The notes under the pieces were generated by a model that was not told the origin of the DNA, ran no database searches, and was given only the letters and a program-made list of their open reading frames with translations. DNA of 64,000 nt from Thermodesulfobacteriota bacterium (GTDB taxonomy: Bacteria; Desulfobacterota_D; UBA1144; Nemesobacterales; CSP1-2): positions 1,948 through 65,947 of the forward strand of contig DASWID010000030.1 in assembly GCA_036397855.1 (NCBI GenBank), written 5' to 3'. The translations under genes and the position numbers were made by a program. Shown piece by piece: positions 1 to 37,361 of the stretch. Within the stretch, counting starts at the first letter, position 1. Every line of letters starts with the position of its first letter.

Positions 1-738
1 CCTTATGATGCAAAGGTTTGGCAATCAACTTGGCCGGAACTAATGAAAAATGTTATTGAAGCGTGTAAAACACATCGCGTAAAGTTAGTTTTTTTCGATA
101 ATGTGTATATGTATGACCCAAACTGTGTATCGCATTTAACTGAGGAAACACGGATAAATCCTTTGAGTAAGAAGGGAATGGTTAGAGCTCAGATTGCACA
201 AATGATTTTAGATGAAGTAGAAGCAGGGAATCTGCGGGCTCTGATAGCCAGATCTGCCGATTTTTATGGTCCTGATAATGATAAAAGTGTTTTGGGGGAG
301 ACCGTATTTAAAAACTTAAAAAATGGCAAAAAAGCAAATTGGCTCTGTTCCGTGAATTACAAACATTCTTTCACATTTACACCAGATGCCGGAAAGGCAA
401 CCGCTCTATTAGGTAATTCTGCTGAAGCATACAATCAGGTATGGCATTTACCAACCGCCAAAGCTCCTCTGACAGGTAAAGAATGGATTGCAGCGTTTGC
501 TAAAGAAATGAATTTAAATCCTAAATATCGGGTCGCGGGGAAAAATATGGTCCGATTACTGGGCTTGTTCGATCCATTGATGAAAGAGTTGGTTGAGATG
601 CTTTATCAATATGATCAAGACTACTGTTTTGATAGTAGTAAATTTGAAAGTCACTATGATTTAAGGCCAACACCATATCTTGAAGGTATAAGGCAAATTG
701 TAGAAAAAGAATATGACCAAAAAGACTCCACAAAGTGA
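1..738 (+). CDS. NAD(P)-dependent epimerase/dehydratase (SDR/NmrA-like), C-terminal part; CDS runs off the 5' window edge
   Basis: The frame is open from base 1 (PYDAKVWQSTWPELMKNVIEACK...) and stops at 738. Sequence has the extended-SDR C-terminal character (…ADFYGPDN…). Confidence 0.55.
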   Translation, partial: PYDAKVWQSTWPELMKNVIEACKTHRVKLVFFDNVYMYDPNCVSHLTEETRINPLSKKGMVRAQIAQMILDEVEAGNLRALIARSADFYGPDNDKSVLGETVFKNLKNGKKANWLCSVNYKHSFTFTPDAGKATALLGNSAEAYNQVWHLPTAKAPLTGKEWIAAFAKEMNLNPKYRVAGKNMVRLLGLFDPLMKELVEMLYQYDQDYCFDSSKFESHYDLRPTPYLEGIRQIVEKEYDQKDSTK

Positions 739-1093
739 AATGCATAAAAACAGCGATTGGAGCGCGACGGGAGGCTTTTGGGCGTTTGAAGAAGTTTACG
801 ACAGATGTTACATTCTGATGAGCAAAGGGGACCGATCGGTTTTCGCTGACGAATGCTTTCCACCGTTATCTTCGTAAATGGGGAGCCAGAAATTTCTTTT
901 TAAGCAGTTCCGCATTTCGGAAAGGCTCTGCGCTCACCAGAGGCAATTTCGATTTTCTTTATTGACATGAAATTAGGCTTGTTGTACCATGGAGAATACG
1001 GCGTTTGCAGCCTAATTAGTAGTTAGCAAGCGTTGGCGATACTGCATGCGCGGCGTCAACCGCACGCGTGATATGGTTCACGAGGAGGCTTAG
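739..1093 (+). repeat. Cassette-associated element copy 0 (hairpin/T-run + promoter TTGACA-N17-TACCAT + conserved leader 'tttgcagcctaattagtagttag')
   Basis: Aligns with copies at 1700, 2440, 3340, 4018, 6790 and 7975 ('ctttccaccgtt', 'ttgacatgaaattaggcttgttgta', 'gcagcctaatt'). Confidence 0.6.
963..991 (+). promoter_or_regulatory. Sigma70-like promoter of cassette 0 (TTGACA-17 nt-TACCAT)
   Basis: -35 and -10 hexamers at the same place as in the other element copies, with a 17-nt spacer 'tgaaattaggcttgttg'. Confidence 0.5.
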
Positions 1094-1474
1094 ATGAGTA
1101 AGGCGAAGAACCGCGCTACGATTGAGGCGCTGGTGGCGGCGATCAACGGGAGAGACCACGAGGCGCTCGACAAGGTGTTCACCGAGGATGTAGCGATGGA
1201 GTGGCCTCAGTCCGGTGAGCGGATCAACGGCGGTCAAAACCGACGTGAAATCTACAGCCGCTTTCCGTCGCTCCCCAAGGTCACACCGCGGCGGATAACC
1301 GGCAGTGGCGACGTCTGGGTGCTCGAGGCAAACCTCGACTACGGCGACGGTGAGCCGTACCCGTGCGTGTTCGTCTTCGAGATGCGGGGCGGTTTGATCG
1401 CCAAGGAGGTCGCCTACTGGACGAAGCCTTTCCCGGCACCCGCGTGGCGCGCCCCGTGGGTCGAGCGCATGTAG
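1094..1474 (+). CDS. SnoaL-like / NTF2-fold small protein (ketosteroid-isomerase-like); high-GC cassette ORF
   Basis: 126 aa with RBS 'gaggagg' upstream. ~63% GC against a ~40% host. SnoaL-like features (…DKVFTEDVAMEWPQSG… EVAYW…). Confidence 0.55.
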   Translation: MSKAKNRATIEALVAAINGRDHEALDKVFTEDVAMEWPQSGERINGGQNRREIYSRFPSLPKVTPRRITGSGDVWVLEANLDYGDGEPYPCVFVFEMRGGLIAKEVAYWTKPFPAPAWRAPWVERM

Positions 1475-1699
1475 AACCCGTACCGACGCCCCCTTACTTG
1501 CTTTTAGAGTGGCTGACAGTTTTTGGAGTAGTTAAATTACCGTCCGTCCTGAGCAGGGTCGAACGGCGTAATGGTTAATAATCTATAGGAAAGGATGCAT
1601 CCCTTGACCGAGCCTGGGATGGGTGTATTCATATCCGCCGTAGAAAATAGTCTGCTTAAATACAATTGGTATAACCCCTCATCCATGCGAACTAGCACT

Positions 1700-1952
1700 T
1701 TTTGGTGCCATTGAGTAGTGCTTGCGTCCTATGGTCTCACGAACCTGATCGAGAAGTTCCTTTCTGGGTGATTTTCGATTTCCTCATCTTGACCTGAAAT
1801 CAGGTTTCTTGTATTCTGAGTACTAATTAGATTAAGCGGTGATTTGCGGTATAACATCCGCCTTCTCGATGTTATCCTGGATTTCTCGAGGCTGAATATT
1901 AGTTAGCATGACCGGCATTATCTTTATTTACTGAGATTGTAAGGAGGAGACA
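1700..1952 (+). repeat. Cassette-associated element copy A
   Basis: Conserved 'tcctcatcttgacctgaaatcaggtttcttgtattct … gatttgcggtataacatcc … cctggatttctcgaggctgaatattagttag'. Confidence 0.65.
1789..1817 (+). promoter_or_regulatory. Sigma70-like promoter TTGACC-N17-TATTCT (cassette A)
   Basis: TTGACC at 1789-1794 and TATTCT at 1812-1817 with a 17-nt spacer. Confidence 0.55.
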
Positions 1953-2432
1953 ATGAATACATCACATCGAATAATAGCAGTAATCGTGGCAGTTGGGATG
2001 GGCTTGATGGCTTGGTTCCTTGCGCAGGCGCAGGAGGGCGGGCATATTTTGCTTAACTCGGCTGATATAAAGTGGGCTGACGCGCCGCCATCGATGTCAC
2101 CGGGCGCACAGATCGCTGTGATTGAAGGGGATTTGAAAAAAGCTGAGCCCTTCGCGTTCCGCCTTAAACTCCCCGCTAATTACAAGATTCCACCACACAC
2201 CCATCCGGCTATAGAACACGTGACCGTTCTCTCCGGAACTTTCTACATGGGGGCTGGAGATCAACTCGATCAGGAGAAAGCCATAGCTTTGACACCCGGC
2301 AGTTTCGCAGCGTTTCAACCGGGGCACAGTATGTTTGCCTGGACTGAGGAAGAAACTGTAATCCAGGTGCATGGGGTTGGTCCGTGGGGGATCGATTACA
2401 TTAGCCCGGCGGACGATCCGAGAAAGAAATAA
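1953..2432 (+). CDS. Cupin-domain protein with N-terminal signal peptide or membrane anchor
   Basis: 159 aa with RBS 'aggagga'. Hydrophobic N-terminus. Cupin motifs (HTHPAIEHVTVLSGTFYMG … HGVGPWG). Confidence 0.6.
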   Translation: MNTSHRIIAVIVAVGMGLMAWFLAQAQEGGHILLNSADIKWADAPPSMSPGAQIAVIEGDLKKAEPFAFRLKLPANYKIPPHTHPAIEHVTVLSGTFYMGAGDQLDQEKAIALTPGSFAAFQPGHSMFAWTEEETVIQVHGVGPWGIDYISPADDPRKK

Positions 2433-2439
2433 CCAGAAG

Positions 2440-2681
2440 AAAAAGGGTAAGGCACCCCTTTTTCGTTGAAGATTGATGTCCACGAGTAGCTTCACCGTTG
2501 GAGAGGCAGAAGTTTCTTTTTGGGGCTGTTTTCGTTCTCCTCTTCTTGACCTGAAATTATGTCATTTATATACTGTGGGTAATCATTGGGATAAGCAATC
2601 ATTTGCAGTAAATATTACTTTTGGTAAATATAGTGCATTATTACTGATTAATTAATAGTTAGGAGCTAGAGAAACTTTTAA
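2440..2681 (+). repeat. Cassette-associated element copy B
   Basis: 'cacccctttttcgttgaagattgatgtccacgagtagcttcaccgttgga … tcctcttcttgacctgaaat'. Confidence 0.65.
2546..2574 (+). promoter_or_regulatory. Sigma70-like promoter TTGACC-N17-TATACT (cassette B)
   Basis: Same position within the element as in the other copies. Confidence 0.5.
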
Positions 2682-3182
2682 ATGGAAGGTCTAATAACAT
2701 TCGTGGTTGGAGTTGCTGTTGGCATCTTGGGGTACTCCATCACCATGAAAGTCAGTTTTAAGCAACGCACGATAGACTACAAAATACGCGTGTATGATGT
2801 CCTGATAGGCAAGTGGGTCCAAATGCGGAACCACATTTATGCTCACCACCCAGGAAACTCATCTGATAATGTCTCGTCACAGGTGATCTACCAGTTTGAT
2901 CAAATGTATGGAGAATCACAGCAGCTCATAGGTGAAGCGATACTTGTGTGCGAAGATGCTGTACTGACGAACGATATAAATGAATTAAACGAGCGAATGT
3001 ATAGAACTAAATGGCACAATCTTCCTTTGGAGCAACTGAATGAGGCTATGGAGTCGATAAAGAAGGATGCCATTTCAATTGTCTCGAGGATGAGAGAAGA
3101 CATAAAAGAAAGTACAAGATTGGAGCTGCGCGACTTCGCACATATCGCGTCTGGGTTTTGGCATAAACGGCACGATAGTTAA
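2682..3182 (+). CDS. Hypothetical protein with N-terminal transmembrane helix
   Basis: 166 aa, ORF starts directly after the element. N-terminus 'GLITFVVGVAVGILGYSI'. No recognisable domain. Confidence 0.4.
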   Translation: MEGLITFVVGVAVGILGYSITMKVSFKQRTIDYKIRVYDVLIGKWVQMRNHIYAHHPGNSSDNVSSQVIYQFDQMYGESQQLIGEAILVCEDAVLTNDINELNERMYRTKWHNLPLEQLNEAMESIKKDAISIVSRMREDIKESTRLELRDFAHIASGFWHKRHDS

Positions 3183-3339
3183 GATAAAAACGTCATTTGA
3201 AGTTCACGCCCGAGGTACCCCGAAAATGCTGGAGTTGATTGCTGACTAACTAGATGAGATAAATGTTTTGATCAAAGTAGGTAGAAAGATCGCGACAAAA
3301 TTGAACAACCCATCTACTCGACACGGTCGTCACTACTCA

Positions 3340-3522
3340 GAAGGAAGTGCCGCTTTGGGTGGTTTTTCCATCTCCTCTTCTGGAACTGAAAATAAGTTCT
3401 TTGTATTCTAAGAGCTAATTTGATTGGGCGACGATTTGCGGTATAACTTCCCTGTTTGGATATTATTCTGCATTTTTGCAGGCTAATTATTAAATGTGTC
3501 AATTGAATAAGGAGAGATTTGA
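3340..3522 (+). repeat. Cassette-associated element copy C (degenerate -35)
   Basis: 'tctcctcttctggaactgaaaataagttctttgtattctaagagctaatttgattgggcgacgatttgcggtataacttcc … ctgcatttttgcaggctaatt'. Confidence 0.6.
3381..3409 (+). promoter_or_regulatory. Promoter-like region (TGGAAC-N17-TATTCT), weak -35
   Basis: Position is homologous to the promoter of the other copies. Confidence 0.35.
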
Positions 3523-3831
3523 ATGTTAGAGCTGCGACCTACTTGTGAGCATTGCAATAAGAACTTACCACCGGTTTCTACTGAAGCAATGATTTGCAGC
3601 TATGAATGTACTTTTTGCAAAGACTGCGTTGATGAAGTTTTAGAAGATGTGTGTCCAAATTGTGGTGGCGGTTTTTGTCCAAGGCCAATAAGGCCGAGTA
3701 ATAATCTGAAAGATGATAATTACCTGGGCAAAGACCCGGCTTCCACAAAAGTTAGACATAAGCCGGTGAACATAGAAGTCCATCGTGAATTTTCCCAGAG
3801 CATTAAGAATGTGCCGCCACACGAGCGTTAA
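3523..3831 (+). CDS. DUF1272-like cysteine-rich zinc-ribbon protein
   Basis: 102 aa, 'LELRPTCEHCNKNLPP…EAMICSYECTFCKDC…CPNCGGGFCPRPIRP', matching my memory of the DUF1272 signature. RBS 'aaggagag'. Confidence 0.55.
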   Translation: MLELRPTCEHCNKNLPPVSTEAMICSYECTFCKDCVDEVLEDVCPNCGGGFCPRPIRPSNNLKDDNYLGKDPASTKVRHKPVNIEVHREFSQSIKNVPPHER

Positions 3832-4017
3832 ACACATAACAATCGGCTGCCCGCAGACTCGATTAGCTCGACGCCGTGTCGGCCACTTGCTCGGCTGTCC
3901 CGTGAATTGTCGCGACATCTCCCTGGTTCCGTCTTAGCACGAGTTCTGCAGCGAGCCGTCCGGTCTCCGCCGCCGCATTCATGAACCCGCGCGAAAAGGT
4001 CGATGGGATTGGGTGAA

Positions 4018-4345
4018 ATGAAATGCACCCCTTTTTCGTTGAAGATTACTTTGCACGAGTAACTTCACCGTTGGATGGGCAGATAATTTCCTAAATTGGT
4101 GAATTTCTATTTCCTCTCCTTGACCTGAAATTAGGCTTGTTGTATCCTGACTACTAGTACATTTAAGCAATGATTTGCAGTATAACATCCTTTTTGCATG
4201 TTGTGCTTGGTCTTTGCTTGCTAATTATAATTAGGATTCTAGGATCTTCTACATGGCAATCATCGCATGCCTGGGGTGGGGTTCTCTTGTATGAGATCCC
4301 CAAGGGCTCCCGGTTCATCGTCAGTGGTTTGCTGATGGCCCGTTT
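4018..4345 (+). repeat. Cassette-associated element copy D
   Basis: 'cacccctttttcgttgaagattactttgcacgagtaacttcaccgttgga … ttgacctgaaattaggcttgttgtatcct … gatttgcagtataacatcc'. Confidence 0.65.
4120..4148 (+). promoter_or_regulatory. Sigma70-like promoter TTGACC-N17-TATCCT (cassette D)
   Basis: 17-nt spacer 'tgaaattaggcttgttg', identical to the copy-0 spacer. Confidence 0.5.
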
Positions 4346-4819
4346 GTGAAGGTGGAATTTGTGCGCCAGTCAGACGACGGCCGAATTACGCTGGTTCTGG
4401 ACGATGTTGCTTCACCGGTGCGCTCGCTTTGGGCAGTGATGGATGATTCCGATCTGGGAGCCGCTCGAGAAGCACTTCGCAAGCGTGAACGAATTCCCGG
4501 TAACAACTCGACGCATATCGGGTCATGGTCTCAGGGAGATAACGCCCCTGAGTTGATTCTTGATCTTCCCGAATGGGTGGCATCACGTGGAGTGCGGTCG
4601 GTCATATGGTCTGCTTTACCGTCAAAATTTGAAGGTAAGAACGGACAAACCCCAACGTGTGAGCAAGTGCTTCGATATCTCAGCGGGCTGACTGGAGCAC
4701 TCCGTGATGCAGCCGAGCGCTACGTTAGCTTGGCGCCTCGCCAAATTGACACGCTGTACCGGCGTCGAATAGAAGCAGTACTTCAATGGACACCGCAGGG
4801 TCCAAACTTTGGGTCATGA
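4346..4819 (+). CDS. Hypothetical protein (GC-rich cassette ORF)
   Basis: 157 aa, ~57% GC, no recognisable family. The start may be GTG. Confidence 0.4.
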   Translation: MKVEFVRQSDDGRITLVLDDVASPVRSLWAVMDDSDLGAAREALRKRERIPGNNSTHIGSWSQGDNAPELILDLPEWVASRGVRSVIWSALPSKFEGKNGQTPTCEQVLRYLSGLTGALRDAAERYVSLAPRQIDTLYRRRIEAVLQWTPQGPNFGS

Positions 4820-5105
4820 TGCGGTTGTGGCTCTATTAATTAGTTAACGCATCGGTTAAGTTACTCGTTAGATCACGTAGATCGGTATGAAGTTTACGAT
4901 AAGGTCTTTAATGGTGGATTTTTGGTTTACAATCAATCCCACCATTTTACAAAGCCTAATATTTCAAGGGTTCATCCTAATTTTCTTCCTTGAGTTTGAA
5001 TCCATCGGTAAAATGAATTAACAGGTTTTTAAGCTTATTAATATCAAGCGATATAGATCACTTAAACGGAAACTGGTAAAGCACTGTATAGGAGATGTTG
5101 GATCC

Positions 5106-6728
5106 TTACTCGAACTTTAAACCCCAGAAGTCCTTGAACCTTTCATCAAGAAAACGGTTTCTTAATTTGCTGCCCTTAATTTTTTGAACGACAGATAAGA
5201 ATCCTTCGCTTGAATTGTTCTTTAGGGTGGAGAAAACATCCTCTAATTCAATCTTATCGATCATCTCATCAAACAGTTCCAATTCTTCAATATTTATAAG
5301 AAGTATATGAAAATCTTTCAAACCGTTAAGATGTTTATCTCTCTCTACATTTTCAAGCGCGTCTTTTATCCATGATTCATACAACGAACTAGATACGAAT
5401 GGCATGTCCATAAAAACTATACAGGGAAATACCTTTTTGTTTTTGAATTGGCTAAACTCATTATAATATTTCGGAATATCTTCTACCCTTTTGAAAATCT
5501 GCTCTATCGCATCTACAATTTTTTTGATCTCTCCTTTCACTATAAGTTCTTTATCGCCGGTCTGTCTACTTAGTAAAGCAAACTGGTTAGCCTTTGCCTC
5601 AAATAGATAGATTTTGTCTCCTCTTTCGACCCACCAGTCAACAAATTTACCTTTAGGATAATCTAACTCTGGGTGAACATTCTGCTCTCCATAGATTCCC
5701 TTTAAGATAACCCCTACATATTCTTGAAAGACATACCCGAAATAGTTTCTAAATTCTTGTTGTTGAGCTTTATCTTCAAAATAGCGATGAAATAACCAAT
5801 AAATCCCCCCAAAAGCTTTTCTAACATACGCAGACGCATTTGGCACAACAAACGGATCACCACGATGCTTTGCATCGGTTTCTATAATTGGATAAACCAA
5901 TAACGGATTAAACCTCGTCTTTGTAAAAATTGGATTCAGGTTTGCATTAAAGCGGACATCTTCGCTTTTGAAACTTTTGTAATCCGCTTTTAATATATTG
6001 AGGAAGTTATTAATTTTTTCTTCGATCAGGACATCCTTTAATTGAGGTATGTCGGCCTTAGTGAACATTGGGATGCTGAAAGTCGCTGTTCTCTTGGAGC
6101 CAGCAGCCACTGCCGTAGCGATTAGGAGATAATCGTTTATTCTTAAGCTTGTTTCCATTTCGAAAATAAGGGATAAATTTTCGAATTTCCCAGGAAGTAT
6201 TTTTTTGACCAAGTCATTAAAGATAACAAACGTTCTTGCCATCATATAAATGGGTAAGAATTGGTATTCCATTTGCTCGAAGTGAAGTCGTATCATCAAA
6301 GATCGGACCTTATCTTCGTTAGTGATTTCATAGGTTTCGGTATGCTCTGGTTGTGTGAGTGAGTTATTATAGATATTGCATAAAGCAAGCCAATTATCTT
6401 TTTCGTGTATATATTTTGATTTGTGATCATTGGCTCCAGAAATAAGCAAAAGATTCGCCAAGTAGGCCAAGGCAAATTGGCTTATTATTATCCCCGTGTT
6501 TTGTTCTCTATGAGCAGCGATGCCAATGTTATTTGGGTCCCCGCTATTGAATATGTAAATAGAAGCTTTGCCCAGAGTAATGATTCCGCCTCGCAGATTA
6601 TATCTCCTTAAAACAGTCTTCAGTTCTTCTTCAGACACTGAGCCCTCCGGTCTATTACCAAGTTCAGCAATATCGCTATCACAAGGTATTGTTATTATTT
6701 CTGGGATCATAGTGTGATTTTTCATCAA
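5106..6728 (-). CDS. Large hypothetical protein (540 aa) with a possible C-terminal PD-(D/E)xK-like nuclease motif; opposite orientation inside the cassette array
   Basis: Long AT-rich ORF (~36% GC). Segment '…FVDWWVERGDKIYLFEAKANQF…' has a D…E-A-K arrangement compatible with a restriction-endonuclease-like fold. No other recognisable domains. Confidence 0.5.
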   Translation of the reverse strand: MMKNHTMIPEIITIPCDSDIAELGNRPEGSVSEEELKTVLRRYNLRGGIITLGKASIYIFNSGDPNNIGIAAHREQNTGIIISQFALAYLANLLLISGANDHKSKYIHEKDNWLALCNIYNNSLTQPEHTETYEITNEDKVRSLMIRLHFEQMEYQFLPIYMMARTFVIFNDLVKKILPGKFENLSLIFEMETSLRINDYLLIATAVAAGSKRTATFSIPMFTKADIPQLKDVLIEEKINNFLNILKADYKSFKSEDVRFNANLNPIFTKTRFNPLLVYPIIETDAKHRGDPFVVPNASAYVRKAFGGIYWLFHRYFEDKAQQQEFRNYFGYVFQEYVGVILKGIYGEQNVHPELDYPKGKFVDWWVERGDKIYLFEAKANQFALLSRQTGDKELIVKGEIKKIVDAIEQIFKRVEDIPKYYNEFSQFKNKKVFPCIVFMDMPFVSSSLYESWIKDALENVERDKHLNGLKDFHILLINIEELELFDEMIDKIELEDVFSTLKNNSSEGFLSVVQKIKGSKLRNRFLDERFKDFWGLKFE

Positions 6729-6789
6729 ACCGTATTTCTAAGTTATTTTTTGTGAGTCTTTCTATATTTTACTCAATATATAAAGAAAG

Positions 6790-6952
6790 ACGGAAAAAGA
6801 ACGCATCACTTTTTCGTCGAAGAATGCCTTCACTGGTAGCTTCGCCATTCGAGAGGCAGAAGTGTCTTTGGTGTGTTTTCCATTTCTTCTTCTTGACCTG
6901 AAAATAGGTTTTCAGTATTCTAGGTGCAGTATTAGATGCGAGGATTATCCTG
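6790..6952 (+). repeat. Cassette-associated element copy E (short leader)
   Basis: 'catcactttttcgtcgaagaatgccttcactggtagcttcgccattcgagagg … ttcttcttgacctgaaaataggttttcagtattct'. Confidence 0.65.
6892..6920 (+). promoter_or_regulatory. Sigma70-like promoter TTGACC-N17-TATTCT (cassette E)
   Basis: Exact hexamers with a 17-nt spacer. Confidence 0.55.
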
Positions 6953-7891
6953 ATGCTAAAAGGAGCTTCAGAAAACGAAACATGGCCGAGTCTCCCTTTA
7001 GATGAGTGGAAAGAGACGTGTGCCACGCTGCACATGTGGTTCCAGATGGTCGGGAAGATTCGGCTGGCCCAGAGTCCTTGGGTTAACCATTCTTGGAACG
7101 TCACCCTCTACGTGACCGCCCGTGGCCTCACTACTTCCCCCATTCCCTATGGAACGAGGACCTTTCAGATTGATTTCGATTTTACTGATCACAAGCTATT
7201 AATTCAGTCCAGCGACGGTAGAGCTGGCTCCATTCTCCTTCGACCCTGCTCCGTCGCGGCGTTTTATAGGAAGCTCATGGAAGAGCTGAATAAGCTCGAT
7301 TTGCATCTCAAGATCAACACGAAACCAAACGAAATGCCGGACCCGATTCCCTTCGACCAGGATGAGGTGCATGCTTCGTATGATCCCGACTACGCCAACC
7401 GCTTTTGGCAGGTGCTCTTACAGTCCGATCGGGTCTTCAAACAGTTTCGAGGCCATTTCATCGGCAAGTGCAGCCCCGTCCATTTCTTCTGGGGTGCCCT
7501 CGATCTTGCTGTAACGCGGTTCTCCGGACGACCGGCACCAGAGCATCCCGGGGGAATACCCCATCTTCCCGACGCCGTAACCCGAGAGGCGTATTCACAT
7601 GAGGTCAGCAGTTGCGGATTCTGGCCAGGGGGTGGCGCGATATCATATCCTGCCTTCTACTCATACGCTTACCCGGAGCCTCACGGCTTCGCCGAAGCCG
7701 CTGTCAAACCCGGCATCGCTTTCTACAGCAGTGACTTTCGTGAATTTCTGCTTCCGTATGATGCAGTTAGAACATCCGAGTCACCCGACGACACGCTTCT
7801 TGAGTTTCTGCAGACTACGTATGACGCCGCGGCCAATTTGGGAGGCTGGGATCGTAAATCCCTGGAGCGTAGCGATACCTTGCAAGGCTAG
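6953..7891 (+). CDS. Hypothetical protein (312 aa, GC-rich cassette ORF; possibly DUF5996-like)
   Basis: ~57% GC. 'WPSLPLDEWKETCATLHMWFQMVGKIRLAQSPWVNHSWNVTLYVTARG'. The family assignment is from memory only. Confidence 0.45.
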   Translation: MLKGASENETWPSLPLDEWKETCATLHMWFQMVGKIRLAQSPWVNHSWNVTLYVTARGLTTSPIPYGTRTFQIDFDFTDHKLLIQSSDGRAGSILLRPCSVAAFYRKLMEELNKLDLHLKINTKPNEMPDPIPFDQDEVHASYDPDYANRFWQVLLQSDRVFKQFRGHFIGKCSPVHFFWGALDLAVTRFSGRPAPEHPGGIPHLPDAVTREAYSHEVSSCGFWPGGGAISYPAFYSYAYPEPHGFAEAAVKPGIAFYSSDFREFLLPYDAVRTSESPDDTLLEFLQTTYDAAANLGGWDRKSLERSDTLQG

Positions 7892-7974
7892 ACCTAATCT
7901 AAGGCGCTAAAATACATTTAGGGTTAAGCATTTAGTTCCTATTTATCGCATCGACGCTATCAGGAAAGGAGGTG

Positions 7975-8233
7975 CACTCCCTTTTTCGTTGAAGATTACT
8001 TCCCACGAGTAGCTTCGCGGACAGCACAATAAGTTTCCTTTTTGGGAGTCACAGTGGCTTAATACAGGTGGTTTTCCATTTCCTCTTCTTGACCTGAAAT
8101 CAGGATTTTTGTATTCTAGTTTTTAGTCAGATTAGGCAATGATTTGCAGAATAGCATCTCGTTTTGGTTATTATCCTGCATTTTTGCTGTCTAATTCGTA
8201 GTTATAGGGATTGAGAAGAAATGCAGGGATGAC
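7975..8233 (+). repeat. Cassette-associated element copy F
   Basis: 'cactccctttttcgttgaagattacttcccacgagtagcttcgcgg … ttgacctgaaatcaggatttttgtattct … gatttgcagaatagcatct … cctgcatttttgctgtctaatt'. Confidence 0.65.
8089..8117 (+). promoter_or_regulatory. Sigma70-like promoter TTGACC-N17-TATTCT (cassette F)
   Basis: Exact hexamers with a 17-nt spacer. Confidence 0.55.
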
Positions 8234-8824
8234 ATGAGTGTAACAGAATATTTGCTTATCGATTTTGAAAATGTTCGGCCTGATGGAATCCCTGCGATTC
8301 ATGAAAATCAAAACGTGTTTATTTTCGCGGGAGATAACCAGAATAAAATTGATTATGACCTGGTTAGAGCGACCCAGCCCTACGGAAATCGGGTTCAATG
8401 GATCAAAATTAAGGGAAGTGGGAGAAATGCCCTTGATTTTCATATTTCCTTTTATCTTGGGAAGTTATCTGCTATTCATAAGCAAGCATCGTTTTTCATA
8501 TTATCCAAAGATAAAGGTTTTGATCCGCTCATGAGGTATTTGGAAAAATCCGGAATACAATGTAAGAGAATAACTCAATTACAGGATTTTATAACAGGCA
8601 AGAAGGAGGTGGATGATGACAGTATATTTGCAAAGATACTTAGGATGCTGCTTAAGATTGATCTGACAAGAAGGCCAAAAAGAATTCGAACATTGAAGGC
8701 ATTTATCGGATCAAGGAATAAAATGGATAGTGTTAAAGTCGATAAAATTATAAAAAGATTGGCCGACGAGGAAATAATCATTTTGAATGAAGAAAAAGTG
8801 TCTTATCCGGCCGGACAAAAATGA
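8234..8824 (+). CDS. NYN/PIN-like (LabA-like) domain protein
   Basis: 196 aa. Motifs 'YLLIDFENVRP', 'SGRNALDFHI' and 'ILSKDKGFDPL' resemble NYN catalytic-core positions. Confidence 0.5.
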   Translation: MSVTEYLLIDFENVRPDGIPAIHENQNVFIFAGDNQNKIDYDLVRATQPYGNRVQWIKIKGSGRNALDFHISFYLGKLSAIHKQASFFILSKDKGFDPLMRYLEKSGIQCKRITQLQDFITGKKEVDDDSIFAKILRMLLKIDLTRRPKRIRTLKAFIGSRNKMDSVKVDKIIKRLADEEIIILNEEKVSYPAGQK

Positions 8825-8928
8825 AACCGTATAACAACCGAATCGAACTGGCAAAATTTTGCTCGTCACGTTGCTTGCTTACGCAAACGCCGCGCCGACC
8901 AGCTCGAAAAGTAAAGGTGTGAGGCCTT
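8821..8928 (+). CDS. Possible 35-aa Cys-containing peptide translationally coupled (ATGA) to the NYN-like gene
   Basis: ATG overlaps the stop of 8234-8824. Peptide MKPYNNRIELAKFCSSRCLLTQTPRRPARKVKV. Not in the ORF track because it is under 60 aa. Coordinates approximate. Confidence 0.2.
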
Positions 8929-8984
8929 GGCATGAGATTTAATTCCTTCGATAAGCTTACATAACTTCTTATCTCTTTTCGTCT

Positions 8985-9062
8985 CCTATTCTAGTCTGAA
9001 AAATAGAAAAGGGGCCACAAGCCTTTTTCGATTAAGAATGCGTTCCACGGGTAGCTTAGCCG
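8985..9062 (+). repeat. Degenerate remnant of the cassette-associated element (copy G); the promoter part is eroded
   Basis: 'ggggccacaagcctttttcgattaagaatgcgttccacgggtagcttagccgcttgagag' aligns with the 5' part of the element. Upstream, 'tctcctattctagtctgaaaaatag' is a decayed promoter part. Confidence 0.45.
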
Positions 9063-9340
9063 CTTGAGAAAAAAAGGTCGGGCTTTGTTTATTTGATTAT
9101 TTGTTAATCCAGCTCATTTGTAATATCTTTTATCTCTTTTTGCAGTCCATCATCTAACAACAGTTTCTGAGAAAATACGGACAGATACTCAATATTCCTA
9201 ATCCGCACTTCGACGAAGCTCAGTGTGAACGGTTTTTATATAAAAAAAGAAAAAGAAAATAGTGACAGCTGCCCCTTTTTCTTAACCAATGTTAGATATG
9301 AAGTGTGTTTTTTAAATTGTGATATATACTAATATATACT

Positions 9341-9805
9341 GTGTTCATTTATCGGGTGATTGAAGCACTTGAGAAAAGAAAAGTAGATTACGCTATTGCT
9401 GGTGGATATGCAGTAGCGCTCCATGGAGCAGTAAGAGGAACTGTTGATATTGACATTGTTTTACGATTTACGAAAAAGAATCTTCTTGCGGCAGAGGCTG
9501 CTCTTAGGGACGTAGGGTTGCAGTCACGTCTTCCGGTAAAAGGAGATGAGGTTTTTGATTTTCGGGAGGAATACATAAAAAATAGAAACCTTTTGGCATG
9601 GAATTTTATTAATATTTCTAATCCGACTGAATCTGTTGATATCATACTCACCGATGATTTGAGAAATTTGAAAACAAAAATAATACGCTCAGGTGAAAAG
9701 ACACTACGGGTAATTTCAATCGATGACCTAATTAAGATGAAAGCGAAGAGTAATAGAGGACAAGACTTAGAGGATATTAAAGCCTTAAGGAGTTTGAAGA
9801 AATGA
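9341..9805 (+). CDS. Minimal Pol-beta-superfamily nucleotidyltransferase (MNT-like)
   Basis: 154 aa, GTG start. 'IAGGYAVALHGAVRGTVDIDIVL' is the hG[GS]x9-13Dh[DE]h NTase motif. Confidence 0.6.
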   Translation: MFIYRVIEALEKRKVDYAIAGGYAVALHGAVRGTVDIDIVLRFTKKNLLAAEAALRDVGLQSRLPVKGDEVFDFREEYIKNRNLLAWNFINISNPTESVDIILTDDLRNLKTKIIRSGEKTLRVISIDDLIKMKAKSNRGQDLEDIKALRSLKK

Positions 9806-10047
9806 AATCAGTACAATTTTTTTCAAAAGAATATTTGGAAAGGTGTGCTTCAATGAAACCAGAACAGATCCTTCAATTTCTGGAAGATTTTAGAACCCTT
9901 CATTCTGAATCAAAAACACAAAAAACCCGTCTTATCAGCATCAAGATCCCCGAAGATTTACTTAATGCTTTCAAAGCCAAAGCAAAAGTTAATGGGATTC
10001 CATATCAAACCCAGATCAAAAGGCTGATGGCGGAATGGATGAGATAG
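9802..10047 (+). CDS. BrnA-like ribbon-helix-helix (CopG-family) antitoxin-type protein
   Basis: 81 aa, overlaps the upstream NTase gene by 4 nt. C-terminus 'RLISIKIPEDLLNAFKAKAKVNGIPYQTQIKRLMAEWM' matches the BrnA/RHH pattern (…RLD.D.L.WFKA…GYQTRIN..LR.Y…). Confidence 0.6.
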   Translation: MKSVQFFSKEYLERCASMKPEQILQFLEDFRTLHSESKTQKTRLISIKIPEDLLNAFKAKAKVNGIPYQTQIKRLMAEWMR

Positions 10048-10519: not shown

Positions 10520-10860
10520 ATACTTATGATTTTTTATCCGCACTTCGACTGGGCCCTTCGACTCAGGACAGGCTCAGTGTGAACGGGTTTTTTGTGCTGA
10601 TGGGAGCCTAAAGGCTTGCTCTACATGGTAATGATACTTTGCGTAGCGGAGGGCTTTAGGCCTCCATTCTTTACAAGTGATGCAGCGTGTGAATTTATCA
10701 GACCCAATAGCCCTTATGTTGTATCCATTGGAATATAAAGAATTCCGCTACAGGAATTCATTGTGTCACGAGCAACACTCGTGACCTACCCGATGGGGAA
10801 TAAATAACAAAATAATCGGGTTTTTTTCTACAGGAAACGAAAACTTAGATAGGACTGGCT
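10520..10860. repeat. Cluster of REP/BIME-like dispersed palindromic repeats in a convergent intergenic region
   Basis: Contains 'ccgcacttcgactgggcccttcgactcaggacaggctcagtgtgaacgg', 'gcctaaaggcttgc…gcggagggctttaggcctcc' and 'gtcacgagcaacactcgtgacctaccc'. All recur elsewhere (9196, 13800-13925, 14155, 15700-15960, 30990, 55085-55205). Confidence 0.6.
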
Positions 10861-15669: not shown

Positions 15670-16010
15670 GACCGGGGTTGCTCACCGGTCCGGCAGATGG
15701 TCACGGTGTCACGAGCAAGACTCGTGACCTACCCAAAGTAGATGGAGGCATAAAATAAAAACCGGGTAGCCCGCCAGTCCCTTCGACAAACTCAGGACAG
15801 GCTTGCTGGTGGGAGAATAATAGATGTAGCGGAGGGCTTTAGCCCTCCAAAAGTCTGTTTCTAAAAAATATAATAACCAACGAGGAAGACTCGTTGGCTC
15901 CCCCAAGCGCACCCTTCGACAAGGCTCAGCGCGAACGGCTTCTTGTGGTCTAATGGAAACCTAAAGGCTTCCTGTACAAATTGTTTAGGAATGCTATGGT
16001 ATTGCAATAA
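15670..16010. repeat. Second REP/BIME-like repeat cluster in a convergent intergenic region (Trm112 -> <- sucD)
   Basis: 'gtcacgagcaagactcgtgacctaccc', 'cccttcgacaaactcaggacaggc', 'gcggagggctttagccctcc', 'cccttcgacaaggctcagcgcgaacgg', 'cctaaaggcttcc'. Confidence 0.6.
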
Positions 16011-37136: not shown

Positions 37137-37361
37137 ATGGAAAAGATGGAAAAAGAACACGTGAGTAAGCATGTTGATATCGAATCTAAGAGGTTTTTCT
37201 TCGACGTAAAGGAAAACCATAAAGGAAAGTATTTAAGGATAACTGAGCTGAGTGGTGGTAGATCATGTATAGTGATACCGCTTGGCGGTATAAAGCTTTT
37301 TAGGGAAAGGTTGGTAGAAATAATAGACGAAGCCGATAAGCTTCTTGACATTGAAGAGTAG
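37137..37361 (+). CDS. PUR-alpha-like small nucleic-acid-binding protein (DUF3276-like)
   Basis: 'MEKMEKEHVSKHVDIESKRFFFDVKENHKGKYLRITELSGGRSCIVIPLGGIKLFRERLVEII' fits the DUF3276/PurA-repeat pattern. The track ORF (36990) over-extends upstream into an AT-rich leader. Confidence 0.5.
   Translation: MEKMEKEHVSKHVDIESKRFFFDVKENHKGKYLRITELSGGRSCIVIPLGGIKLFRERLVEIIDEADKLLDIEE

Follow-up and report, generated by a model that had tools for sequence, protein, structure and literature searches.

The leader sequence analysed here recurs in front of most genes of a cassette array in the window, i.e. the whole 64-kb stretch of contig DASWID010000030.1, which belongs to a Candidatus Dadabacteria genome. 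The array covers positions 780–9085 on the plus strand and consists of eight cassettes or transcription units, all built in the same order—promoter, leader, open reading frame (ORF), terminator and a conserved "tail". The leader is interpreted as a shared structured 5′ untranslated region (5′ UTR), probably serving as a stabiliser or insulator of the mRNA and possibly as a common regulatory handle, an interpretation to which about an even chance is given. Promoter and leader are the first half of a portable module for expression, the rest of which consists of the foreign ORF, the terminator and the tail; in a clade of Candidatus Dadabacteria, a variable array of cassettes has this module before most of its genes. 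More unusual than the leader motif itself are the module and the array, with a terminator-promoter-leader copy for each cassette.

The promoter preceding the leader, TTGACC-17-TATTCT, is conserved in 34 module copies and looks like one of the sigma-70 type. Its copies in the window are these:

1789–1817, plus strand: promoter of copy A, with TTGACC at 1789–1794, a 17-nt spacer and TATTCT at 1812–1817
962–990: the same promoter, copy 0
2546–2574: the same promoter, copy B
3381–3409, plus strand: promoter of copy C, with TGGAAC as the −35 box
4120–4148: the same promoter, copy D
6893–6921: the same promoter, copy E
8089–8117: the same promoter, copy F

Transcription is predicted to start about 7 nt after TATTCT, which would place the start of the leader stem at +1 to +3. 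Resemblances to a sigma-54 promoter and to the IHF consensus, both compared by eye only, were dismissed, the spacing being wrong for the former and the supposedly free positions being as conserved as the rest in the case of the latter.

A first-pass annotation of the window had noticed two motifs shared by copies A, C, D and F downstream of the −10 box, and both are present where it had located them. The first one, GATTTGCRGTATAAC, is found at 1841, 3433 and 4172, as well as at 8141 with two mismatches, always starting 23–25 nt past the −10 box; no further match with up to two mismatches was found in the 64 kb, and the three-mismatch matches at 37280 and 37722 are at chance level. The second one, with the general form ..GCWGNCTAATT or GGCTGAATATT, reads gcaggctaatt in copy C, gctgtctaatt in F, gcttgctaatt in D and ggctgaatatt in A (1890–1900), and it occurs also in copy 0 as gcagcctaatt (1007–1017). 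In 21 copies taken from several genomes, GATTTGC follows 23–25 nt after the end of the −10 box, and 48–51 nt separate it from CTAAT, the aberrant copy L2d having 55 nt. As for the details of the annotation, the motif in copy C exists, its ending being ACTTCC (...TATAACTTCC) and not ACATCC, and the small hairpin thought to be common to C and F is tctgcatttttgcagg in C, the version in F (cctgcatttttgctgt) having one mismatch. The individual leaders are as follows:

1818–1906, plus strand: shared part of the copy A leader, from the −10 box to TAGTTAG, with GATTTGCGGTATAAC at 1841–1855 and GGCTGAATATT at 1890–1900; the covariance model R1 matches this copy at 1812–1918 with 89.9 bits
1907–1952, plus strand: cassette-specific 5′ UTR of the cupin gene of copy A, with the Shine-Dalgarno sequence AAGGAGG at 1941–1947
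1004–1027, plus strand: short leader of copy 0, a single TTTGCAG..CTAATTAGTAGTTAGC unit without the hairpin
2575–2662, plus strand: leader copy B, diverged as had been recognised, still scoring 68.2 bits with model R1
3410–3497, plus strand: leader copy C upstream of the DUF1272 gene, with GATTTGCGGTATAAC at 3433–3447 and the full hairpin (z = −3.15)
4149–4235, plus strand: leader copy D, with GATTTGCAGTATAAC at 4172–4186, the stem P2 intact and the outer stem degraded
6922–6952, plus strand: deletion-variant leader of copy E, with the degenerate remnant TGCAGTATTAG..GATTATCCTGA at 6925–6952
8118–8205, plus strand: leader copy F upstream of the PIN7 gene, with GATTTGCAGAATAGC at 8141–8155; orthologues are found in the related loci L001, L029, L030, L043 and L044

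Concerning the extent of the element, which had been given as 1818–1952, only 1818–1906 is shared among the cassettes; the remainder, 1907–1952, is specific to the cupin cassette, being common to its orthologue in locus L006 and not to the other cassettes. The conservation ends sharply after TAGTTAG(G) (1906 in copy A), with a pairwise identity of 0.64 inside the leader and 0.27 just beyond it. Within the leader it is clearly non-uniform, ranging from 0.07 to 2 bits per column, with the highest values in AAGCAATGATTTGC, TTAT, TTTTT and CTAAT and low values in the loop and at positions 85–90, and it is gone past TAGTTAGG; this is not the uniform identity that a recent duplication of one element would have left, the scenario that the annotation had named as its own refutation. 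Shared ancestry and recombination among the copies explain, at the same time, much of the leader similarity. The full leader is present in five of the eight window cassettes and in 23 of 34 distinct promoter modules (from metagenome loci, the genome match and flank-gene look-ups), later look-ups having raised its total to 27, so that placing all cassettes under one signal was too strong a claim. In the other modules, namely copy 0, the E type, locus L012 and the hydrolase cassettes, the leader is truncated or of a different form. Copy E, said to lack the leader, retains the above-mentioned remnant, and the DUF5996 orthologue in L003 has inherited the same variant (position 2930). A search with Rfam 15 at gathering thresholds found only a tRNA in the whole window, and in the region 700–9300 at E ≤ 5 the leaders remained unmatched.

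In an alignment of 21 sequences (A2), the two motifs turn out to be opposite arms, 5′ and 3′, of a single imperfect hairpin about 80 nt long. The annotation had regarded them as two half-sites for a common repressor or activator; these half-sites are the arms of the hairpin. The left arm consists of CTAATTAG, ATTAA, GCAA, TGATT, TGCAG, TATAAC and ATCC, the loop of 5–7 nt, and the right arm of GGAT, ATTAT, G, CTGCA, TTTT, TTGC, AGG and CTAATTAG, followed by TAGTTAGG; the model comprises 27 pairs in three helices. In copy A, according to the centroid fold and the pair counts, it corresponds to:

1823–1899, plus strand: the long imperfect hairpin, with its loop at 1860–1866
1823–1830 with 1892–1899: the outer stem, CTAATTAG with GAATATTA, imperfect in this copy
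1845–1859 with 1867–1881: the inner stem P2, TGCGGTATAACATCC with CGATGTTATCCTGGA

Minimum-free-energy folds of single sequences give the same long hairpin in most copies. Compared with dinucleotide shuffles, the mean z is −2.0 (t-test p = 5e-5), ten of 20 copies being below −2, and 20 of 21 copies have a more stable fold in the sense than in the antisense orientation (−17.9 vs −12.5 kcal/mol; Wilcoxon p = 2e-4). In the paired columns, 76 transitions keep the pairing as G·U on the sense strand vs 25 that break pairs; the unpaired columns are without such a bias (Fisher odds ratio 2.8, p = 7e-4), which argues against a simple strand-specific mutation bias. Around 80% of the cells of the three-helix model are standard pairs, vs 22–48% with slid partners, and two copies exhibit compensatory A-U to G-C changes in the outer stem. 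The complementarity of the arms, the strand asymmetry, the mean z and the odds ratio, together with a modest covariation, favour the structured 5′ UTR, mentioned by the annotation as an alternative only. An attenuator-like fold with two small hairpins (1:2 + 3:4) was also tried and rejected, there being no covariation and the 3:4 helix being paired in 64% of cells.

Relatives of the module were sought by a genome scan with the promoter pattern, a promoter-only metagenome scan and look-ups of homologues of the flanking nucleotidyltransferase. The genome scan yielded one species representative, a metagenome-assembled genome of Candidatus Dadabacteria (L001), the right flank of which is syntenic with the window (nucleotidyltransferase, CopG-like antitoxin, ClpS, M19 peptidase); it has a different, shorter array located directly downstream of the 23S rRNA gene, which in the window genome is found ~2.4 kb upstream of the array. 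The metagenome scan gave 13 loci. The order of the eight cassettes occurs in at least eight contigs from different samples, indicating an array that is stable within the population, and exact-protein look-ups of the window cassettes retrieved nothing but this array from other samples; in L001, L029, L030, L043 and L044 the content differs by whole cassettes. More distant Dadabacteria loci (L033–L036 and L046) have the same flanking nucleotidyltransferase gene and no such repeats, viral contigs gave nothing or a chance coding match, and BLAST against plasmids and phages found no match. All 27 matches of model R1 share one orientation and one distance from the same promoter, and the model finds no copy elsewhere in the window or in the other scanned loci, for which reason a dispersed palindromic repeat of the MITE (miniature inverted-repeat transposable element) kind was rejected.

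The leader is inherited together with the ORF downstream of it, as seen in the cupin, PIN7, DUF5996 and hydrolase cassettes, orthologous cassettes retaining their own leader in different contexts. The cupin leader has the loop CCGCYTTCTCG both in copy A of the window and in L006; the PIN7-specific GAATAGCATCTC and GCTGTCTAATT are found in the window, L001, L029, L030, L043 and L044; the E-type deletion is present in both DUF5996 copies (window and L003); and one hydrolase leader is common to L001 and L014. The leader thus belongs to the transcript of the downstream gene. The tail, for its part, is inherited with the upstream ORF, and the breakpoints between contexts are located either at or close to the −35/spacer region (L006 compared with L012, window compared with L001) or, at the right end of the array, inside the tail (window compared with L029). 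Taken together, this defines the unit as promoter, leader, ORF, terminator and tail.

Several observations weigh against a functional structured leader. The transcription start, and with it the 5′-terminal position of the hairpin, is deduced from sequence. Copy A, at the coordinates highlighted in the first-pass annotation, folds no better than its shuffles (z = −0.57; −0.28 for the whole leader), and RNAalifold returns only a 4-bp mini-hairpin, GCAA-UGAU-UUGC. The covariation is weak to modest, with a score of 0.243 vs 0.212 ± 0.010 in column shuffles (two of 500 shuffles reach it) and 0.219 vs 0.194 for 27 sequences (four of 500), the number of such shuffles being 2–5 of 500 across the runs—ranks that related sequences can attain without any structure. 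The best-conserved block of the leader, GATTTG, is unpaired, and pairing gives no explanation for it. DUF5996 cassettes have three leader forms. Eleven of the 34 modules are without the hairpin or have deletions in it, their downstream genes being intact, and the leaders of PIN7 orthologues are 0.77–0.91 identical, vs 0.84–0.88 for third codon positions and 0.79–0.86 for the untranslated 3′ region, which means that the constraint on the primary sequence is weak and the leaders are not clearly slower to change than neutral positions.

The last two observations are among those expected if the leader were a hitch-hiking relic, i.e. a former insertion or duplication in the ancestral promoter module that has been kept by ancestry and by recombination or gene conversion and has little or no function. 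Such a relic would also account for the identity among paralogues (mean 0.64), corresponding to only about 2–3 times the divergence of orthologues, and for the mosaic leaders, L013 and L009 having the 3′ arm but not the 5′ arm in common before the same gene, a pattern that points to recombination among modules. It does not, however, account for the strongly uneven conservation, for the four fifths of cells that are paired, for the directional excess of pair-preserving changes over the unpaired columns or for folding that beats the shuffles on average, and is thus considered unlikely. A DNA operator—a common transcription factor acting on the duplex leader and repressing or activating all the cassette promoters, possibly by looping—would have its candidate sites in the two 8-bp palindromes CTAATTAG (at ~+1 and ~+77) and in the direct repeats TTTGCAG-N2-TAA. 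AAGCAATGATTTGC, TTAT and CTAAT are indeed more conserved than pairing alone demands, the spacing between the blocks is constant within ~1 nt, and there is an overlap between the first palindrome and the predicted start of transcription, where a repressor would classically bind. A duplex site, on the other hand, does not predict substitutions that keep G·U on the sense strand only; moreover, the A-to-G change in palindrome 1 is matched by a T-to-C change in palindrome 2 and not symmetrically within one site, and no candidate regulator gene is associated with the arrays. The operator is therefore regarded as quite unlikely.

If the hairpin or its 3′ end TAGTTAGG were a recombination site of the attC/attI kind, it would act as folded single-stranded DNA in cassette capture. 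The imperfect palindrome has an attC-like length, the array holds the small genes of mixed GC content typical of cassettes, and the consensus 3′ end GTTAGG(C) matches GTTRRRY, the shared sequence stopping exactly there, although only about half of the copies have a TAGTTAGG(C) that fits GTTRRRY. The hairpin is nevertheless inherited with the downstream and not the upstream ORF, the cassette junctions are at the −35/spacer region or in the tail rather than at GTTAGG, the 5′ partner is (T)ACTAAT, without AAC, where RYYYAAC is expected, and R″/R′ pairs are no commoner in the array than elsewhere in the window. No Phage_integrase or recombinase domain was found in the 20 scanned window ORFs, all those of integrase-like size included, nor any integrase beside the arrays of L002, L006, L009, L010, L029, L030 and L035. 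An attC-like site is, therefore, largely refuted and highly unlikely. A perfect pair ATCTAAC...GTTAGAT at 9152–9297 (146 nt), considered as integron boxes, is not kept in the syntenic L029 and is probably due to chance. Attenuation by a leader peptide, in which a short ORF from the ATG of AATGATTTGC (MICSITSLFGYYAAFLQAN) would let the ribosome position choose between hairpins, is very improbable, too. An ATG or GTG stands at the start position in 14 of 21 copies, many being in frame to a stop in CTAATTAG, and the segments GCAA, TTGCAG, CTGCA and TTGCAG allow either 1:2 + 3:4 or 2:3 pairings; the remaining seven copies, however, have a non-start codon (ACG, ATA, ATC or AAG), three copies have early stops, there is no Shine-Dalgarno sequence, and 3-nt periodicity is missing (entropy 0.82, 0.88, 0.78), so that the peptide was rejected on coding criteria. 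Furthermore, the weakly paired 3:4 hairpin is not followed by a U-run, and the downstream ribosome-binding site is outside the conserved region.

According to the structured 5′ UTR reading, the hairpin would make up the initial ~85 nt of the mRNA produced from the repeated promoter. By analogy with known 5′-terminal stem-loops, it may guard the mRNA from 5′-end-dependent decay and may provide the very different foreign genes with a uniform, insulated 5′ end. A common trans-acting factor—an RNase, a protein or a small RNA—could use the conserved internal loop (UGAUU opposite UUUU) and the alternative small hairpin GCAA-UGAU-UUGC as its handle, and would thereby co-regulate the leader-bearing cassettes. 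A trans-acting antisense partner for AATGATTTGCAG was sought in the window, where only matches at chance level were found. A three-frame stop insulator in CTAATTAGTAGTTAG was discarded, all three frames being closed in only six of 20 copies.

With regard to the array as a whole, the junction element repeated between its units is ~250 nt long and has four parts: a short terminator-like hairpin (A-run, GC stem, T-run), the conserved tail reading CGTTGAAGAATGCTTTCCACGGGTAGCTTCRCCGTTGGAGAGGCAAGAAGTTTCTTTTTGGGC, a T-rich stretch with the promoter, and the leader. Every cassette closes with the terminator-like hairpin 5′ of the next promoter, which fits independent transcription units. There are n + 1 tails for n promoters, one following the SDR gene at the left end of the array. 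The GC content of the ORFs ranges across the array from ~0.35 to ~0.65 (35–65%), vs ~0.38 for the backbone, and the surroundings of the array in the window are housekeeping chromosome. The genes and tails are as follows:

1094–1474, plus strand: SnoaL gene
1953–2432, plus strand: cupin gene, with its ATG at 1953
2682–3182, plus strand: gene of unknown kind, 166 aa
3523–3831, plus strand: DUF1272 gene
4346–4819: unknown ORF, paired with the 540-aa gene at 5106–6728 on the minus strand
6953–7891, plus strand: DUF5996 gene
8234–8824, plus strand: PIN7 gene
2440–2545, plus strand: an example of the 3′ part of a cassette, with the intrinsic-terminator-like hairpin AAAAAGGG..CCCCTTTTT, the conserved tail CGTTGAAGA..CCACGAGTAGCTTCACCGTTGGAGAGGCAGAAGTTTCTTTTTGGGGC and then the T-rich stretch leading to the −35 box
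~822–961, 4015–4119, 6793–6892 and 7965–8088: other tails
9007–9075: the last tail, without a promoter

A hairpin in the tail, CGTTGAAG/CTTCRCCG, was rejected as a required structure, its 5′ arm being missing in two copies and its pairing broken in others, and so was a target-site duplication AGTAGTTA around the SnoaL insert, which is not kept in L030.

Several features of the cassettes deserve a separate mention. The 540-aa gene at 5106–6728 is a reverse insertion within the array; it has no match in Pfam or PADLOC and a weak likeness to the antiphage GapS1 family (NCBIfam NF047931, 69.5 bits with a cutoff of 320). In cassette D, the ATG at 4254 meets a stop after 13 codons and the long ORF begins at the GTG at 4346, the product of the gene caller having 152 aa; the start may be damaged or mis-called. 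A GC-rich stretch of ~150 nt (3840–3995) located 3′ of the DUF1272 gene resembles a remnant of foreign DNA inside cassette C, and is accompanied by a 92-aa ORF on the minus strand (3640–3918).

As far as the flanks are concerned, the pair of a DUF6036 nucleotidyltransferase and a CopG-like antitoxin (9341–10047 in the window) adjoins every array with a visible right end, having been seen at L009, L029, L030 and L037–L045; in more distant Dadabacteria, more small cassette-like genes come after the nucleotidyltransferase pair, and these lack the repeat. On the left side, a 181-aa gene is located between the 23S rRNA gene and the array of the window genome (L017 1–930 and 2120–2200; cf. L001 6100–8000), and 3′ of it there is an attC-like-looking hairpin, GTCTAAC..GAGCTGAC..GTCAGCTC..GTTGTG.

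The window contains other repeats as well. Small hairpin repeats with a TTCGAC..GCTCAG..GAACGG core and the covarying stems CACT/AGTG and ATCCT/AGGAT are found at 1543–1575, 9190–9237, 10520–10591 and 15924–15943. They occur also just upstream of the promoter modules in L001, L003, L008, L009, L010, L013 and L014, often between the tail of a cassette and the next promoter, and if translated, they give FDKLRA..VRPELVEG pseudo-ORFs, as in L004. Two more families of short repeats (10758–10815, 15701–15758 and 15880–15907; and 10590–10625, 10717–10752 and 15943–15978) are both intergenic between convergent housekeeping genes and have no Rfam match, one of them containing the hairpin CACGAG-N5-CTCGTG.

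Among known systems, the array is close to integron arrays and their attC sites, including the integrase-less CALIN: small unrelated genes, horizontally acquired and of mixed GC content, stand in tandem and in one orientation, imperfect-palindrome repeats of ~60–140 nt separate them, whole cassettes are gained or lost among close relatives, and a GTTRRRY-like motif is present at the repeat edge. Integron cassettes are silenced by distance from Pc, the promoter of the integron platform. They are generally promoterless and depend on Pc (PMC11014356). Here, by contrast, one promoter and one terminator are repeated in each cassette, the palindrome is at the 5′ end of its gene and not at the 3′ end as in integrons, there is neither a RYYYAAC partner nor an integrase nearby, and the junctions are not at G|TT. 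The array is thus integron/CALIN-like in its content and dynamics, but it fails every defining integron test applied.

ERIC/IRU of enterobacteria and Correia/NEMIS of Neisseria are transcribed palindromic repeats that can carry or adjoin promoters and alter mRNA stability. The leader resembles them as an imperfect palindrome (~80–130 nt) in transcribed intergenic DNA, its transcription being predicted; while they are dispersed in both orientations at variable distances from genes, it is present in arrays only, in one orientation and at a fixed distance from the promoter. Stem-loops at the 5′ end stabilise some bacterial mRNAs, the 5′ UTR of ompA being an example, and the stem of the leader likewise would begin within a few nt of the predicted 5′ end and does not include the ribosome-binding site, which lies further downstream. 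It is, however, much longer (27 pairs in three helices) and repeated as a module across unrelated genes, and its stabilising effect is proposed by analogy. Like phage morons, the cassettes are self-contained promoter-gene-terminator units with an accessory gene of foreign composition; unlike morons, which are single insertions with unrelated promoters, they form an array with one conserved promoter-leader-tail module and are chromosomal rather than part of a prophage. Literature searches for integrons or promoter-bearing cassette arrays in Dadabacteria found nothing relevant, and to our knowledge no system has been described in which acquired genes arranged in an array have one promoter-leader-terminator module in common.

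A broader, more speculative possibility, which we consider rather improbable, is that the junction element (tail, promoter and palindromic leader) is the core of an undescribed gene-capture platform of Candidatus Dadabacteria, with an integron-like outcome and a different logic, the cassettes being exchanged by recombination within the module. Each captured gene would then be packaged with a standard promoter, structured 5′ UTR and terminator; the exchange would be either homologous or due to a site-specific enzyme acting near TTGACCTGAAAT or the tail; and the leader hairpin would be the standard 5′ part making foreign genes expressible and jointly controllable.

Should the leader prove to be a functional RNA, it would represent a new cis-acting motif, common to unrelated accessory genes, in a phylum without cultured members, and a single factor could then adjust a whole group of horizontally acquired functions together. 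Supplying each foreign gene with the same promoter, structured 5′ UTR and terminator would be another way in which nature solves the expression of captured genes, and the array would be a natural counterpart to the insulated expression cassettes of synthetic biology. Since the array is small, clearly bounded and recurrent in many environmental assemblies, the question is directly testable.

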